Shown: positions 4,158-54,720 of the stretch, piece after piece
How positions within the stretch are numbered: the stretch's first letter is position 1
Layout of the letters: each line of letters starts with the position of its first letter
From: an uncultured Bacilli bacterium
Lineage (GTDB): Bacteria > Bacillota_I > Bacilli_A > RF39 > UBA660
Length of the DNA: 64,000 nucleotides
Reading direction: 5' to 3'
NCBI GenBank assembly: GCA_947589735.1
Contig: CANQCR010000007.1
Coordinates: forward strand, 988-64,987
Notes under the pieces: generated by a model
Told to the model about the DNA's origin: nothing
The model's input: the letters and a program-made list of their open reading frames with translations, nothing else
The model's database searches: none
Translations under genes and position numbers: made by a program

Positions 4158-5154
4158 TGTATATATTTTAGGTATAGAATCTAGTTGTGATGAAACGAGT
4201 GTATCAATTGTTAAAAATGGTGAGGAAGATATTGCTACAGTTGTTTTATCACAAATGGATACCCATGCTAATTATGGCGGCGTTGTTCCCGAGATTGCCA
4301 GTAGGATGCATGTTGAAAATATTACGATGGTCATTGAAGAATGCTTAAATAAGGCCAATATGACAATGGATGATATAACCGCCATTGCTGTAACTTATGG
4401 GCCAGGTTTAATTGGTTCTTTGCTTGTAGGAGTAACGGCAGCTAAAACTCTTGCCTATGTTTATAATAAACCACTTGTACCTGTTCATCATATTGCTGGT
4501 CATATTTATGCTAATAACTTAACAAAAAAGATGACCTTCCCCCTTATAGCTTTAGTTGTCAGTGGGGGACATACGGAACTTATTTATATGAAAGATAACT
4601 ATAGTTTTGAAAAAATTGGTGGAACCTTAGATGATGCTGTCGGTGAGGCTTATGATAAGGTAGCGCGCATTGTTAAAGTTCCATATCCAGGTGGACCTTT
4701 AGTTGATAAAATGTCTTATCAAGGAGAGGATAATTATGATCTTCCTTTACCACTTGATGACGATTCATACAATTTCAGCTTTAGTGGCTTAAAGAGTGCG
4801 GTTATTAACCTTGTTCATAATGAAGAACAAAGAGGACATACTATTAATAAGGAAGATTTAGCTTGTTCTTTCCAAAAACGCGTTGTGGATATTTTAACCA
4901 AGAAGACTATGCGAGCTTTAGAACATTACAATGTTAAGAATATGATTATCGCTGGTGGGGTGGCTGCTAATAGTGGCATTAGAACTAAATTTACAGAGCT
5001 ATGCGCTTCTAATGGCGTGGATCTTACGATACCAGAATTTAAATATTGTACGGATAATGCGACGATGATTGCAGCGGCAGGATTCTTTGCCTATGAAAAA
5101 GGTAAAAGAGCTGGCCTTGATTTAAAAGCTAAAGCTAATACAAAATTAGAATAG
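4147..5154 (+). CDS. tsaD: tRNA N6-adenosine threonylcarbamoyltransferase TsaD (Kae1/Gcp)
   Basis: Motifs ILGIESSCDETS, HHIAGH (metal-binding) and VSGGHTEL. 335 aa. Confidence 0.95.
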   Translation: MKNDVYILGIESSCDETSVSIVKNGEEDIATVVLSQMDTHANYGGVVPEIASRMHVENITMVIEECLNKANMTMDDITAIAVTYGPGLIGSLLVGVTAAKTLAYVYNKPLVPVHHIAGHIYANNLTKKMTFPLIALVVSGGHTELIYMKDNYSFEKIGGTLDDAVGEAYDKVARIVKVPYPGGPLVDKMSYQGEDNYDLPLPLDDDSYNFSFSGLKSAVINLVHNEEQRGHTINKEDLACSFQKRVVDILTKKTMRALEHYNVKNMIIAGGVAANSGIRTKFTELCASNGVDLTIPEFKYCTDNATMIAAAGFFAYEKGKRAGLDLKAKANTKLE

Positions 5155-5163
5155 AGGGAATAA

Positions 5164-5841
5164 ATGAAATGTCTTATCTTATGTGCTGATCATAATGATG
5201 ATTTAAATGCTGAACCTTATGCATTAATGGAAGTTGATGAAGGAATAAAAGCGTTAGATGTCTTAATTGATCAAGTTCATCAAATAGAAGAGATTGATCA
5301 AATATATGTTGTAACCAATGGTAAAAGTTATGATACCTTTCTAAATTGGTATGATAACCGCTACCCTGATGTTAAAATCATTAACGATAATACAACCTCA
5401 CCAGATGCTAAATTAGGAGCGATTGGTGATATTAAGTTCACTTTAAATTGTGAAAATATCAACGATGATTTACTTATTATCGCGGGCGATGCGGTATATG
5501 ACTTTGACTTATTGGATATTTATAACTATTATAAACTTAAATCTTCACCGGTTGTCGCTGTTAAGCAAGCTTTAAACTTATTAGATTTAAAACGCTATGG
5601 TGTTGTTAGATTTGACGATGATAATAAAATTATCGAAATGCATGAAAAAGTAACGGAACCAATTGGTAGCCATATCGCTTTAGCGCTTTACTTTTATCCA
5701 AAAGAGGTTATTAGAACATTTGATTATTACTTATCTGAAGGTAATAAAACGACCTCGCCAGGATATTTCCTTGAATATTTATATCCTAGTTGTGATAGCT
5801 ATGCTTATGTTATTGATGGGGAATATTATACATTAAAATAA
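5164..5841 (+). CDS. Nucleotidyltransferase-fold protein (sugar-phosphate nucleotidyltransferase-like) with a degenerate N-terminal signature
   Basis: Overall layout and blocks (IAGDAVYDFD, RYGVV.FD....I.E..EK) resemble the NTP_transferase family. The usual G-x-G-T-R-L loop is replaced by LILCADHNDDLN. Confidence 0.5.
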   Translation: MKCLILCADHNDDLNAEPYALMEVDEGIKALDVLIDQVHQIEEIDQIYVVTNGKSYDTFLNWYDNRYPDVKIINDNTTSPDAKLGAIGDIKFTLNCENINDDLLIIAGDAVYDFDLLDIYNYYKLKSSPVVAVKQALNLLDLKRYGVVRFDDDNKIIEMHEKVTEPIGSHIALALYFYPKEVIRTFDYYLSEGNKTTSPGYFLEYLYPSCDSYAYVIDGEYYTLK

Positions 5842-5848
5842 ATGTCAA

Positions 5849-5876
5849 AGGTTTGTCTAACAAGCCTTTTTAATTG
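5849..5876 (+). terminator. Rho-independent terminator after 5164-5841
   Basis: Hairpin AAAGGTTTG-tctaa-CAAGCCTTT (one G.U pair) followed by a T-run. Confidence 0.5.
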
Positions 5877-5926
5877 ACTTTCAAAATATTATATAGTAAA
5901 ATTGATTTAGAAATGGAGATGTATTT

Positions 5927-7330
5927 ATGGCTGAAACTGTTACTAGAAAATATAATCCACATTTTGTAAAAAAAGCATCTATGTTGTTTAAGGTTTCGGA
6001 AGGTTATGTTTTAGTAAAACGAAATGATATTTTTAAAGGAAGAATTAGAGCTATTGTAAAAAAACGCGAATATCCTGAAACGGAACCGGATGTAAGAGTG
6101 GTTCATATCCATGACCCCAAAGAAGTTAGTGATGAATTATTACAAAAATTAAAAAAGCAAAAAGATCCTAATAGCGTAATGGGAAAAATGATTGAACAAG
6201 AAATCGCTTATCGTGAGGGCCGTGCAAAAGAAACGCCTGAACTATTATCTTATGCCTTTAGACTAAGGGGTACTCGTACAGTAATGAGGAAAAAGATTGA
6301 GGCTAAGACCGGTTTACGTATTAAATGGCCTTGGGAGTCAGCTATTGTTTTATCTTTAGCTGAGATTGAGGTACAAACAGCGGCTATTCCTGTTGATACG
6401 AAAGATAAAGTCCATGTATTATTTGATACAGACTATCGTTATAAAATAGTTGATCCTCACGCCTATGCTCTTTTAATAAGCCAAAAGGGTAATGCTGCAA
6501 ACGTTGAAAGACTAATGGGTCGTGATTTGGACCAATTAGTAATTGATTATGTTAAAAAAGCTGGTATTGATGAGTTTATTGGTAAGTCTTCACCAGATCT
6601 TATGGACGTTTTTGGGGATCAATTAGCTGCTATTGGAGAACAATATGGAGTTGAAATAACACGCTTTTTAGTAGGTAAAGTTACTTGGCCTAAGGAGATA
6701 ACTGAAGCGGAAGCAGCTAAAAGAGCTGCAGTGTCTAAAGCTGAAGCTGATAGAATAAGAGCTCAAGGTCGTGCTGATGCTAGACGTCTTGAAAATGCTG
6801 CTGAACTTGAAAAAAAGCAGGCGGAAGCTGATATCGATGTAGGAAAAGCGTCTGGATTATCACAAGTACGTTCACAAACAATTGCGGATACAACTAGAGT
6901 CGTTGAAAGTGGAGCAACATTTAAGCATTTAGCGCCTCAGCATCAAGCCAGTGTTTTAGGTAGTGCTTACGGTGCTACGGCAGAAGGACCTAAAGTAATT
7001 GTTAATGGTACGGGTGCTGTTGCGGATCAAGTTGGTGCAGCTGTGGCAGCTGCGAAGATTAGTAGTACTGATGGACAAGAGAAACCTAGTAAAAAAGAAG
7101 AAGTTAGTGGCGAAGATATCAGTACAGCTCGTCAATTATGTGAAGAAGAAGGAGTATTATCTAGAAATGGATATTTTGATCCTGAAACATCACAAGAGTT
7201 GGCTGCGCAATTTGATTTCCAATTGCAAGAAGGTATGTCTCTTAAGTTTGATCAAGTTCCACCTGAAGTTGTTGTTGCTTTTGTTAAAGAGCGTCACAAA
7301 ACTAAAACTAAATCTGGCGGAGAAAATTAA
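5927..7330 (+). CDS. SPFH/Band-7 (flotillin/prohibitin-like) domain protein with a coiled-coil region and a C-terminal extension
   Basis: SPFH-like core (PVDTKDKVHVLFDTDYRYKIVDPHAY). This is followed by an A/E/K/R-rich coiled coil (AEAAKRAAVSKAEADRIRAQGRADARRLENAAELEKKQAEAD). No obvious N-terminal TM helix. Confidence 0.7.
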   Translation: MAETVTRKYNPHFVKKASMLFKVSEGYVLVKRNDIFKGRIRAIVKKREYPETEPDVRVVHIHDPKEVSDELLQKLKKQKDPNSVMGKMIEQEIAYREGRAKETPELLSYAFRLRGTRTVMRKKIEAKTGLRIKWPWESAIVLSLAEIEVQTAAIPVDTKDKVHVLFDTDYRYKIVDPHAYALLISQKGNAANVERLMGRDLDQLVIDYVKKAGIDEFIGKSSPDLMDVFGDQLAAIGEQYGVEITRFLVGKVTWPKEITEAEAAKRAAVSKAEADRIRAQGRADARRLENAAELEKKQAEADIDVGKASGLSQVRSQTIADTTRVVESGATFKHLAPQHQASVLGSAYGATAEGPKVIVNGTGAVADQVGAAVAAAKISSTDGQEKPSKKEEVSGEDISTARQLCEEEGVLSRNGYFDPETSQELAAQFDFQLQEGMSLKFDQVPPEVVVAFVKERHKTKTKSGGEN

Positions 7331-7335
7331 AAGTT

Positions 7336-7608
7336 ATGGATTTGCATGATTATAAATATTTATCATCTTTGGCTGAAAACATAAATGATCAAATGCCTTA
7401 TGCTAGTGTTTTAGAACAACAATTGTGTGATGAATATCATCTTGTTAATGATGAAGGCTATTTTAATCGCGACGATTCTTTGACTTTGGCAGAAATTAGG
7501 GGAGAAGAACTTGATGCTTTTACGGTATATCATCGAGCTTTTATCAAACCATCCGAAATACTTCAATTAGTTTTAAGAACAAGGGTTGAAAAAACCAAAG
7601 AAAAATAA
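7336..7608 (+). CDS. Small hypothetical protein, paralog of the C-terminal tail of the preceding SPFH protein
   Basis: 90 aa. QQLCDEYHLVNDEGYFNRDDS aligns with RQLCEEEGVLSRNGYFDPETS of the upstream protein. It starts 6 nt after the upstream stop. Confidence 0.6.
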   Translation: MDLHDYKYLSSLAENINDQMPYASVLEQQLCDEYHLVNDEGYFNRDDSLTLAEIRGEELDAFTVYHRAFIKPSEILQLVLRTRVEKTKEK

Positions 7609-7628
7609 ACTACGCTAATGCGTAGTTT
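7607..7628. repeat. Left copy of the 22-bp duplicated target hairpin (AAACTACGCTAATGCGTAGTTT)
   Basis: Identical to 7819-7840. It is a perfect stem-loop (AAACTACGC-taat-GCGTAGTTT) that overlaps the TAA stop of 7336-7608. Confidence 0.9.
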
Positions 7629-7818
7629 CTGGCCGTTGACAAAGTCGGTTTTTCAAACCGGCTTTGTCAATCGGCTTTTTTGGTTCCCCACTTTAGTATT
7701 AAAAAAAGAGTTAATTTGGGTTTTTAATATCAAATAACACTCATTTTTAAACTTTTGTCTCCACTTTTAAATTTTAAATTTTTGTTTTTTTCCAAGAATG
7801 TAGTTTGTCAACAGTCTG
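7629..7818. mobile_element. 190-bp non-coding MITE-like element, copy 1
   Basis: 100% identical to 54508-54697. Imperfect terminal inverted repeats: CTGGCCGTTGACAAAG at the left, reverse complement of the right end CAGACTGTTGACAAAC. Subterminal hairpin 7632-7675 plus T-run. No ORF. Flanked by a 22-bp direct duplication. Confidence 0.85.
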
Positions 7819-7840
7819 AAACTACGCTAATGCGTAGTTT
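7819..7840. repeat. Right copy of the 22-bp duplicated target hairpin
   Basis: Identical to 7607-7628. It encodes the last codons and the stop (…TTH*) of the minus-strand permease gene. Confidence 0.9.
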
Positions 7841-8624
7841 TTTCATACTTTTTTTCAATATAATAAATAAGATAATAGAGTGTTGTTGCAACAACACATA
7901 AAAGAACGATACCCGTCATAACAAGATCAAGGTTAAAAACTTGTGATCCATACATAATTAGATAACCAATTCCTTTTTTTGATACTAAAAACTCACCCAT
8001 AATAATCCCGATTAAAGACATACTAATACAGATTTTAAGATTACTTATAATGGTTGGAATATTTGATGGAAATATCAGATAATAATATAGTTTGAACTTA
8101 CTTTTGGTAAACGATTTAACAAGCTTAATTTTATTTTCATCAATGTTCATAAAACCATTATAAATGTTAATGGTTAGGACAATGGAACTAATTAAAATAG
8201 CCATAATAATAATTGATGTTGTCGTTGTTCCAAACCAAATTAAAATAATGGGCCCTAAGGCTACCTTTGGTAAACTATTTAAAATAGTTAAATAGGGTTC
8301 ACAAACTTTAGCTAGAACTTGTGATGACCATAAAATACTCGCGATAACAATACCAATAATCATACTAACAACAAAACTGATAATTGTTTCATAGATAGTT
8401 GTTTCAATGTGAATAAATAAATTGTTATTACTATATAAATTACTAATAGTCATAATTATTTTTTTAGGTGAAGAAACAATAAAAGCGTCAATTATTTTCA
8501 TATCGGTTAATAATTGCCATAAAATAATGAAGATAATGAAGATAGTTATTTGCCCAAGGAAGATTAATATTTTTTTCTTTCTTAACTCTTTTAGGTACTT
8601 TTGATGCTCTTTACTCATAGTCAA
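7827..8624 (-). CDS. ABC transporter permease (NitT/TauT - SsuC/ThiX-like family)
   Basis: 265 aa with about 6 TM helices. Typical binding-protein-dependent permease layout. Overlaps the upstream ATPase gene. Confidence 0.8.
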   Translation of the reverse strand: MTMSKEHQKYLKELRKKKILIFLGQITIFIIFIILWQLLTDMKIIDAFIVSSPKKIIMTISNLYSNNNLFIHIETTIYETIISFVVSMIIGIVIASILWSSQVLAKVCEPYLTILNSLPKVALGPIILIWFGTTTTSIIIMAILISSIVLTINIYNGFMNIDENKIKLVKSFTKSKFKLYYYLIFPSNIPTIISNLKICISMSLIGIIMGEFLVSKKGIGYLIMYGSQVFNLDLVMTGIVLLCVVATTLYYLIYYIEKKYEKTTH

Positions 8625-53650: not shown

Positions 53651-54499
53651 ATGCAAGGAACAATAGTTAAACAAATCAGTAATGATTATACTGTTAAACT
53701 TGATGATAATACATTAGTTGTTTGCAAAGCTCGTGGTAAGTTTCGTAATCTTCATCTCATCCCTTTAGTAGGTGATAAAGTCATTATCGATTACCAAAAT
53801 AAATATATTATGGAAATATTACCCCGCACAAATGAACTAATTAGACCTAGTATTGCTAATGTTGATCAAGCTGTTATTATTACAAGTGTTCATATTCCTA
53901 ACTTTTCATCAAATCTTTTAGATAAACTTTTAACCATTATTGAATATAACAATATTAAGCCAATTATTTGTTTTACTAAATTAGATTTAATTGATGATGA
54001 ATATCGTAAGGAAATAGATATTTATATCAATTATTACAGGCGTATTGGTTATGATGTTTATCTAAATACGGATGAAAAAATAAAAGATATTTTTAAGGAT
54101 AAAGTCACGGTTTTTGCCGGTCAAAGTGGAGCCGGTAAAAGTACTTTACTAAATCATTTGGATGAGACACTAAATATTGCGACAGCTGATGTATCCGCTA
54201 AGTTAGGTAGAGGCCGTCATACAACGCGTCATGTCGAATTATTACCGGTATTAGGAGGATTAATTGCAGATACACCAGGTTTTTCCTCACTCGATTTTAT
54301 CGGTATGAAAAATAGTGATATTAGAGATAGTTTTATAGAGTTTAATCAATATCGTGATAAGTGTGAATACCAAGATTGTATGCATAAAAGTGAAGCTGAT
54401 TGTGAAATTAAAAGACAAGTAGAAAGTGGCAATATTCTTTCCTCACGTTATGAAAATTACTTAAAATTTATTGATCGCAAAGAAAATGTAGATTATTAA
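53651..54499 (+). CDS. rsgA: Ribosome small subunit-dependent GTPase A (RsgA/YloQ)
   Basis: OB-fold N-terminus, circularly permuted GTPase (TKLDL, GQSGAGKST), and a C-terminal zinc finger C..C.H….C. Confidence 0.93.
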   Translation: MQGTIVKQISNDYTVKLDDNTLVVCKARGKFRNLHLIPLVGDKVIIDYQNKYIMEILPRTNELIRPSIANVDQAVIITSVHIPNFSSNLLDKLLTIIEYNNIKPIICFTKLDLIDDEYRKEIDIYINYYRRIGYDVYLNTDEKIKDIFKDKVTVFAGQSGAGKSTLLNHLDETLNIATADVSAKLGRGRHTTRHVELLPVLGGLIADTPGFSSLDFIGMKNSDIRDSFIEFNQYRDKCEYQDCMHKSEADCEIKRQVESGNILSSRYENYLKFIDRKENVDY

Positions 54500-54507
54500 T
54501 CTACATT
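54485..54507. repeat. Left copy of the 23-bp duplicated target hairpin (AATGTAGATTATTAATCTACATT)
   Basis: Identical to 54698-54720. The stem-loop AATGTAGAT-tatta-ATCTACATT encodes the last codons and stop of rsgA (…NVDY*). Confidence 0.9.
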
Positions 54508-54697
54508 CTGGCCGTTGACAAAGTCGGTTTTTCAAACCGGCTTTGTCAATCGGCTTTTTTGGTTCCCCACTTTAGTATTAAAAAAAGAGTTAATTTGGGT
54601 TTTTAATATCAAATAACACTCATTTTTAAACTTTTGTCTCCACTTTTAAATTTTAAATTTTTGTTTTTTTCCAAGAATGTAGTTTGTCAACAGTCTG
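54508..54697. mobile_element. 190-bp non-coding MITE-like element, copy 2
   Basis: Identical base for base to 7629-7818 and in the same orientation. It lies between rsgA and rpe and is flanked by a 23-bp direct duplication. Confidence 0.85.
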
Positions 54698-54720
54698 AAT
54701 GTAGATTATTAATCTACATT
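54698..54720. repeat. Right copy of the 23-bp duplicated target hairpin
   Basis: Identical to 54485-54507 and followed by TTTT. Confidence 0.9.

Follow-up and report, generated by a model that had tools for sequence, protein, structure and literature searches.

A miniature element of gut Firmicutes related to IS1182-family insertion sequences is flanked by duplications of whole terminator hairpins

The 64-kb stretch of DNA analyzed here (the window), which comes from an uncultured Bacilli bacterium of the rabbit gut, carries two copies of a 190-bp element, and each copy lies between two complete copies of a hairpin that is present only once in uninterrupted alleles of the same site. The element is a new MITE family of gut Firmicutes among the known hairpin-targeting IS1182 elements. 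As part of the explanation as a whole, it is very probably a non-autonomous MITE, descended from an IS1182-family insertion sequence (IS) that mobilises it in trans and whose transposase has DUF772 and DDE_Tnp_1_6 domains.

The two copies are 100% identical (7629-7818 and 54508-54697), as the initial annotation of the window had reported and as we confirmed by reading the window and with a repeat finder. Full identity extends to 7627-7820 and 54506-54699, i.e. 2 nt past the element on each side, because both flanking repeats start with AA and end with TT; the element boundary is therefore ambiguous by 2 nt from the window alone. Copies elsewhere whose target duplication does not start with A or does not end with T, such as the one at locus L049 (duplication CGCAAATTACAAGTAATTTGCT), fix the termini as CAG...CTG, and the left end of the window element reads CTG, giving termini CTG...CTG. 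The terminal inverted repeats are imperfect, as first described: CTGGCCGTTGACAAAG and CAGACTGTTGACAAAC match at 12 of 16 positions, and the repeats are kept in 18/18 distinct sequence variants of the MITE. The initial annotation was also right that the element lacks coding capacity, in that no ORF longer than 48 aa overlaps it; the longest overlapping ORFs (39-48 aa) reach into the flanks, and the ORFs that overlap the 190 bp gave no family match. The element had no match in Rfam, and this blank result, the presence of inverted repeats and duplications and the absence of strand bias led us to reject a group II intron, an integron attC-like site and a known RNA as its identity. Within its 150-bp body the sequence (C)CCACTTT occurs twice in direct orientation (7685-7692 and 7770-7777 in the window) and occupies the same columns in all subfamilies, including the 66%-identical Clostridia one, and in the tail of the full-length IS at locus L021; it may be a second protein-binding site.

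Table 1. Coordinates of the element, its ends and its flanking duplications in the window, and duplications flanking related IS on plasmids.
Feature	Position	Strand	Basis or remark
MITE copy 1, 190 bp, non-coding	7629..7818	+	window identity, ORF scan, 66-89% identical gut-MAG copies
MITE copy 2, 190 bp, identical to copy 1	54508..54697	+	between rsgA and rpe
Left terminal inverted repeat, CTGGCCGTTGACAAAG	7629..7644	+	
Right terminal inverted repeat	7803..7818	-	reverse complement = CAGACTGTTGACAAAC
Subterminal hairpin + T6, intrinsic-terminator-like	7632..7681	+	terminator scan, folding vs shuffles
Target-site duplication, copy 1, left: 22-bp hairpin AAACTACGCTAATGCGTAGTTT	7607..7628	.	
Target-site duplication, copy 1, right: AAACTACGCTAATGCGTAGTTT	7819..7840	.	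original T-run kept
Target-site duplication, copy 2, left: 23-bp hairpin AATGTAGATTATTAATCTACATT	54485..54507	.	contains rsgA stop
Target-site duplication, copy 2, right: AATGTAGATTATTAATCTACATT	54698..54720	.	original T-run next
B. pumilus pBP-T2 IS			flanking duplication, 28-bp hairpin
B. subtilis plasmid IS			flanking duplication, 19 bp
A. pseudofirmus ISBspe1			flanking duplication, 20 bp
Listeria pLIS32 IS			flanking duplication, 21 bp
C. estertheticum pCF009-b IS			flanking duplication, ~20 bp, one indel

The left end of the element forms a hairpin at 7632-7675 whose arms are the left repeat and an inverted GTTGACAAAG copy. It has 20 pairs, including one G.T pair, and is followed by T6 at 7676-7681; it folds with a z-score of -6 relative to shuffles and was detected by the terminator scan. 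The hairpin, the G.T pair and the T6 thus agree with the initial description, and only the bulge needs correcting, as it is T7671 on the plus strand rather than an A. The inner stem covaries across subfamilies (CGGTTT/AAACCG, CGATTT/AAATCG, CCACTTTT/AAAAGTGA and CCCTC/GAGGG), indicating that the structure is conserved.

Both flanking repeats, AAACTACGCTAATGCGTAGTTT at copy 1 and AATGTAGATTATTAATCTACATT at copy 2, fold end to end as hairpins, so the initial claim of perfect direct repeats that are each a complete stem-loop holds for the 22-bp and the 23-bp repeat alike. Reading the window also confirmed what had been said about the genes on the two sides of copy 1: the left AAACTACGCTAATGCGTAGTTT overlaps the TAA (7606-7608) of the gene at 7336-7608, and the right one supplies the final codons and the stop (7827-7829) to the permease gene, which lies at 7827-8624 on the minus strand. 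Both genes retain their codons, stops and stems after the insertion because the whole hairpin has been regenerated on each side. The left hairpin copy is left without a T-run, and the element's own strong hairpin and T6 start within 4 nt of it and would compensate for the missing T-run. Judging from this arrangement, the insertion would be nearly silent for the host, with unchanged termination predicted.

Alleles without the element were found for both insertions when contigs of other gut metagenomes were aligned to the window. At copy 1, a contig of run X5 joins 7606 to 7819 and skips 212 letters (190 + 22), with 22 letters that fit both sides. At copy 2, contigs of runs X5, X6 and X7 join 54484 to 54698 and skip 213 letters (190 + 23), with 23 letters that fit both sides. 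A contig of another run (L081), which was found through the 90-aa upstream protein, has the same two genes with a single AAACTACGCTAATGCGTAGTTT and no element between them. Since the empty sites of both copies contain a single hairpin, the flanking repeats are true target-site duplications, which is what the initial annotation had proposed when it read them as a duplication of the whole hairpin at the target; it had also raised the possibility that empty sites might already contain two hairpins, and those seen hold exactly one. Both insertions are polymorphic among close strains, and this polymorphism together with the 100% identity of the two copies indicates that transposition was recent. 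The initial suggestion of a MITE-like mobile element is thereby upheld by two identical copies, inverted repeats, empty sites and a multicopy distribution.

In the empty allele of copy 1, a single 22-bp hairpin is common to the 90-aa gene and the convergent permease gene; it constitutes the entire intergenic space and includes both stop codons (7606-7829 in the window). This hairpin is an extreme case of a terminator built into last codons.

A pattern scan for the left-end hairpin, using one genome per species, yielded 78 loci, and BLAST with the element identified ~45 further copies, 66-89% identical to it, distributed over about 12 MAGs of Bacilli and Clostridia from the gut. Copies with 80-89% identity occurred in uncultured Bacilli MAGs from rabbit and other guts, at up to ~20 per MAG, and one Clostridia MAG harbored a subfamily of 189 bp that is 66% identical. 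In the source sample (run X1), the word depth of the element core was ~10x that of the flanks, and the depth of the element ends (7631-7656 and 7800-7812) was 250-400 compared with 93 for the core, i.e. 2-4x higher, where all depths are assembler word depths summed over organisms. This pattern hints at more copies and suggests that the source metagenome contains other elements with the same ends, possibly an autonomous IS.

The flanks of these copies, which the initial annotation had recommended tabulating along with their orientation, revealed the same type of duplication at unrelated sites. Perfect flanking repeats of 17-32 bp were present in 33 of 38 complete copies with readable flanks, and all of the repeats were different. 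Nearly all were hairpins whose stem starts at, or next to, the first and last base. Their mean folding energy was -6.8 kcal/mol, whereas random windows matched in length and drawn from the loci themselves averaged -0.54 kcal/mol; 94% of the duplications fell under the 1st percentile of this control, and only 0.06% of the random windows were as well folded as the median duplication. Duplications began with A in 35/39 cases and ended with T in 34/39, and no target sequence consensus was found beyond these A/T edges. The palindrome extended 1-6 bp (mostly A:T) past the duplication in 22/39 cases, indicating that the cut is made near the base of the stem and not always at the outermost possible pair. 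At most sites an ORF ended within 40 nt of the element, on one side or on both, and the targets are thus intrinsic terminators. The orientation of the element showed no preference relative to flanking genes and was split 17:20 relative to local GC skew; this randomness follows from the symmetry of the target. Short matches between the right end of the element and both target hairpins in the window, for which the initial annotation had allowed coincidence, are indeed coincidental, as ~40 other copies share the right end and their target hairpins are unrelated; we accordingly rejected a functional link between this end sequence and the targets.

The remaining five of the 38 complete copies had no matching duplication. 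The initial annotation had named copies of this kind as evidence against its reading, which applies to these five and not to the other 33. A hairpin adjoins at least one side of the element in each of the five and both sides in four. The best explanation may be that copies recombined or were wrongly joined in assembly, as seen for a full-length IS contig (L098, below). Of all sites without a matching duplication, MITE copies and full-length ISs taken together, most have different hairpins on their two sides, and one, at L070, duplicates only 8 bp.

A contig of run X5 that aligns to window positions 7626-7818 carries two MITEs in tandem with a single GGAGAAGATAATATTAAAATGTTATCTTC hairpin between them, and the same hairpin is the one duplicated at locus L032. 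Because each insertion regenerates two targets, a tandem MITE-hairpin-MITE arrangement can arise, and its occurrence indicates that a regenerated target was used repeatedly.

The 64-kb window showed no transposase, nor did the 8-kb loci from the Bacilli MAGs, and tblastn of the loci returned the transposase at L021 only. L021 holds a longer element with the same kind of ends, of the sort that the initial annotation had proposed looking for, but it comes from another MAG, a Clostridia one, whose own MITE shares only 66% identity with that of the window. The full-length element is 1.8 kb long, has the left end CAGAGTGTTGACAAAG and encodes a 452-aa ORF (4947-6305) that matches the NCBIfam model NF033551 (IS1182 family transposase) with 404.7 bits against a cut-off of 270 (E = 6e-121) and the Pfam domains DUF772, DDE_Tnp_1_6 and DDE_Tnp_1. 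Thousands of relatives of this type of transposase exist. The right ~150 bp of the L021 element, together with its right end, aligns with the MITE found in that MAG. The full-length ISs have the left end CAGAGTGTTGACAAAG, which matches the MITE left end CTGGCCGTTGACAAAG at 13 of 16 positions and was also compared with the MITE end CAGGCCGTTGACAAAG. The full-length ISs share the architecture of the MITE ends, i.e. a terminal repeat with an inverted subterminal copy that forms a hairpin. Since these ends are themselves hairpins, we infer that the transposase may recognize its target by means similar to those used for its own ends.

Several other families were rejected. An IS1634/IS1549 or IS1202-type parent was rejected because the parent transposase belongs to the IS1182 family, and the IS6 family, considered because the element end resembles GGTTCTGTTGCAAAG, was rejected for the same reason. 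An IS200/IS605-PATE origin was rejected because inverted repeats and long duplications are present and strand bias is absent (17:20).

A transposase 98% identical to that of L021 (P0012) lies in a 1.66-kb sister IS that has perfect 16-bp ends, CAGAGTGTTGACAAAG, and occurs at many sites. Whole-hairpin duplications of 29-32 bp flanked this sister IS at 3 of 9 sites (L090, identical to L092; L093; and L099), and the other 6 had a different hairpin on each side. For one of these discordant contigs, L098, empty alleles (L108 and L112) reveal two flanks that do not adjoin in the uninterrupted genome; the contig spans two IS copies, either as a join or as a recombinant, as is plausible for a 1.7-kb repeat in short-read metagenomes. 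Landing of the element between two adjacent, different hairpins without duplication is thus not supported at L098, and MITE copies like that at L015 are compatible with it.

The L021 element (4700-6565) is itself a hybrid of an IS body and a 150-bp MITE-type tail, with different hairpins on its two sides. An additional solo GTTGACAAAG end-like remnant lies 60 bp upstream of it, and a MITE that shares its right-hand hairpin follows directly after it. The extra end remnant is reminiscent of the tandem left-end duplications that have been reported for IS1272 (PMC5678879).

We extended the analysis to complete plasmids, in which tblastn with the gut transposase returned 373 records; none of them reached 60% identity, and every one carried an IS1182 family annotation. 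Five of the 373 were examined, with transposases that have 43-46% amino acid identity to that of the gut IS. A duplicated whole hairpin of 19-28 bp flanked 5/5 of these IS1182-family elements (Table 1), and all five have ends of the form CAGRCTGT.GA.AAA with an end hairpin and T-run. The C. estertheticum pCF009-b IS has the left end CAGACTGTTGACAAAC, exactly as the right end of the window element reads in reverse complement. The right ends of IS1182-like elements of Alicyclobacillus also adjoin hairpins. Taken together, the duplications flanking plasmid and gut ISs show whole-hairpin duplication to be a trait of a broad IS1182 clade rather than a peculiarity of the MITE. The long hairpin duplication noted in the initial annotation is thus not unprecedented, as full-length plasmid elements do likewise and hairpin targeting in this family is published (PMC5678879, PMC4923244).

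The data require that the joints on the two strands be spaced by the whole palindrome and that this spacing follow palindrome length. Structure-directed insertion, with breaks at both bases of a hairpin as first suggested, is supported by the empty sites and by the 33 of 38 copies that are flanked by unrelated hairpins. In the mechanism we propose, the transposase of this clade would select a palindrome able to extrude as a hairpin or cruciform while reading no target sequence, and in practice the palindromes chosen would be the intrinsic terminators at gene ends. Each transposon end would most likely be joined at the foot of the extruded hairpin or cruciform, presumably at its 5' foot, in a form in which the two feet would be spatially adjacent. 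The joints would then lie on two strands a whole palindrome apart, and re-absorption of the extruded DNA followed by gap repair would copy the complete hairpin on both sides, such that the length of the duplication (17-32 bp) would be set by the hairpin and not by the enzyme. We favor an extruded cruciform in duplex DNA over a single-stranded hairpin as the probable target; cruciform recognition in the IS1182 family is putative. The general form of this proposal, namely that across a whole clade of IS1182-family transposons the spacing of the joints is set by the secondary structure of the target rather than by transposase geometry, so that the duplication equals the palindrome in length, is one that we advance tentatively and hold with somewhat less than even confidence.

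The principal competing explanation keeps the same element and family and has the transposase attack a hairpin in single-stranded DNA, such as the lagging-strand template, a transcription bubble or a conjugative strand, with the duplication arising upon second-strand synthesis or repair. Stems of 7-14 bp that are AT-rich extrude poorly as cruciforms and fold readily in single-stranded DNA, and the hairpin ends of the element recall those of IS200/IS605, both of which would fit a single-stranded target. However, IS608-like single-strand transposons are strongly strand-biased and make no duplication, and the present copies show no orientation bias relative to GC skew (17:20) or gene direction. 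Moreover, the transposase is of the DDE type and belongs to the IS4/IS5-like superfamily, and joints must be made on both strands for the duplication to appear on both sides. Given this DDE chemistry and the lack of strand bias, a single-stranded hairpin is less likely than a cruciform as the target, and we regard it as an improbable account of the data.

Long or variable duplications occur in other IS families, including IS1634/IS1549 and the IS1202 group, and the duplications described here could in principle result from an ordinary long staggered cut, with the hairpins merely reflecting a preference for AT-rich intergenic DNA. Against this account, the length of the duplication tracks the hairpin over a range of 17-32 bp, with the stem usually running from the first to the last base; only 0.06% of random windows fold like the median duplication; and the parent transposase belongs to IS1182 rather than to IS1634 or IS1202. 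We therefore consider a simple staggered cut highly improbable. That the element is a host terminator cassette, carried by recombination or gene conversion from one pre-existing double hairpin to another with no target duplication at all, is scarcely credible despite its strong terminator-like hairpin and T6 and its invariable location at gene 3' ends, as this account is refuted by empty sites in which exactly one hairpin is present and the 190 bp are missing, and is further opposed by flanking hairpins that are all different and by inverted repeats that are common to transposase-encoding ISs.

The cruciform-based reading can be placed among systems that use stem-loops as landing sites. IS1397 and ISKpn1 of the IS3 family insert in the loops of REP/BIME palindromes, with a 3-4-bp duplication for IS1397, and bacterial class C group II introns insert after terminator stems without duplication. 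Like the MITE, both use extragenic stem-loops as safe landing sites, but their enzymes are different and the whole hairpin is not copied. IS200/IS605 elements have HUH single-strand transposases, no terminal inverted repeats, no duplication and a strong strand bias. They and the PATE derivatives resemble the present element in having subterminal hairpins that are essential in the ends and small non-autonomous derivatives, whereas none of the HUH, no-repeat and strand-bias traits fits here. Within the IS1182 family itself, direct repeats reportedly range from 0 to 60 bp in ISfinder.

The closest known relatives in behavior are IS1272 and TnSha1, IS1182-family elements that target terminator hairpins without sequence specificity and remove part or all of the target hairpin without duplicating it, a process termed "stem-loop replacing" (PMC4923244, PMC5678879). 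They share with the MITE the transposase family, varied inverted-repeat or hairpin targets without a primary-sequence consensus, insertion immediately downstream of genes, stem-loop ends, and repeated use of the same hairpin in both orientations. In contrast with IS1272 and TnSha1, which delete the hairpin, the 190-bp non-coding derivative described here keeps and duplicates it. This outcome corresponds to a hypothetical pathway, pathway b in Fig. 13 of PMC5678879, in which attack at the 5' feet leads to the entire stem-loop being duplicated. That some IS1182 members target palindromes is attributed to Siguier et al. 2015 where that work is cited in PMC4923244 and PMC5678879. IS1182-derived MITEs have been described in Methanosarcina as partners of ISMac2; these are 160-169 bp long, multicopy and flanked by direct repeats of 4 or 0 bp, and are thus likewise miniature IS1182 derivatives, but no hairpin duplication was reported for them (PMC3852290). 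The plasmid elements, including ISBspe1 of Alkalihalophilus pseudofirmus OF4 and those of pBP-T2 and pLIS32, resemble the MITE in having a subterminal inverted copy and a hairpin with T-run, and differ from it in being autonomous, 1.6-1.8 kb long and equipped with their own transposase. Relative to them, the window MITE has lost the gene and has a 150-bp tail with two conserved CCCACTTT motifs.

In the papers that we searched, duplication of an entire hairpin by an IS1182 element or its MITEs was described only as the hypothetical pathway of PMC5678879, and no MITE of this type was reported. Structure-measured duplication is thus under-documented rather than new. The insertions assembled here constitute a natural data set of ~40 independent events with precise empty sites and with parent ISs in finished plasmids, and they show one clade of DDE transposons choosing its targets by DNA shape and duplicating an entire terminator hairpin. 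To our knowledge, a rule in which spacing is set by structure has been neither demonstrated experimentally nor surveyed systematically. If it is true, these elements would be natural insertion devices that seek out terminators, spare genes, and renew and multiply the target they use. Hairpin duplication explains how the element can be present in the 0-6-bp gaps between convergent genes with neither gene harmed, and it explains why the elements break short-read assemblies at terminators. For annotation, it carries the warning that doubled terminators around ~190 bp in gut Firmicutes are transposon scars and not regulatory designs. The family is suited to tests of structure-directed transposition and is a possible gene-sparing insertion tool.

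Three minor observations concern hairpins at individual loci. A divergent 192-bp copy in a Bulleidia MAG (L070, 6236-6427) duplicates only 8 bp, AAAACTAT, which form the left arm of its right-hand hairpin and reflect either a different cut position or a later deletion. At L015, the MITE-abutting hairpin that ends a 487-aa gene recurs in nearly identical form just upstream (4522-4543 and 6245-6268), so that a 1.7-kb gene is bracketed by one hairpin type; this arrangement may be the scar of another hairpin-duplicating event. Finally, a 38-bp palindrome, CGTTGACAAAGTCAAC..GTTGACTTTGTCAAC, which is unrelated to the MITE body, is present at at least four loci (L019, L035, L043 and L064) of one Solibacteraceae (Acidobacteria) MAG and may be an operator or belong to another repeat family.
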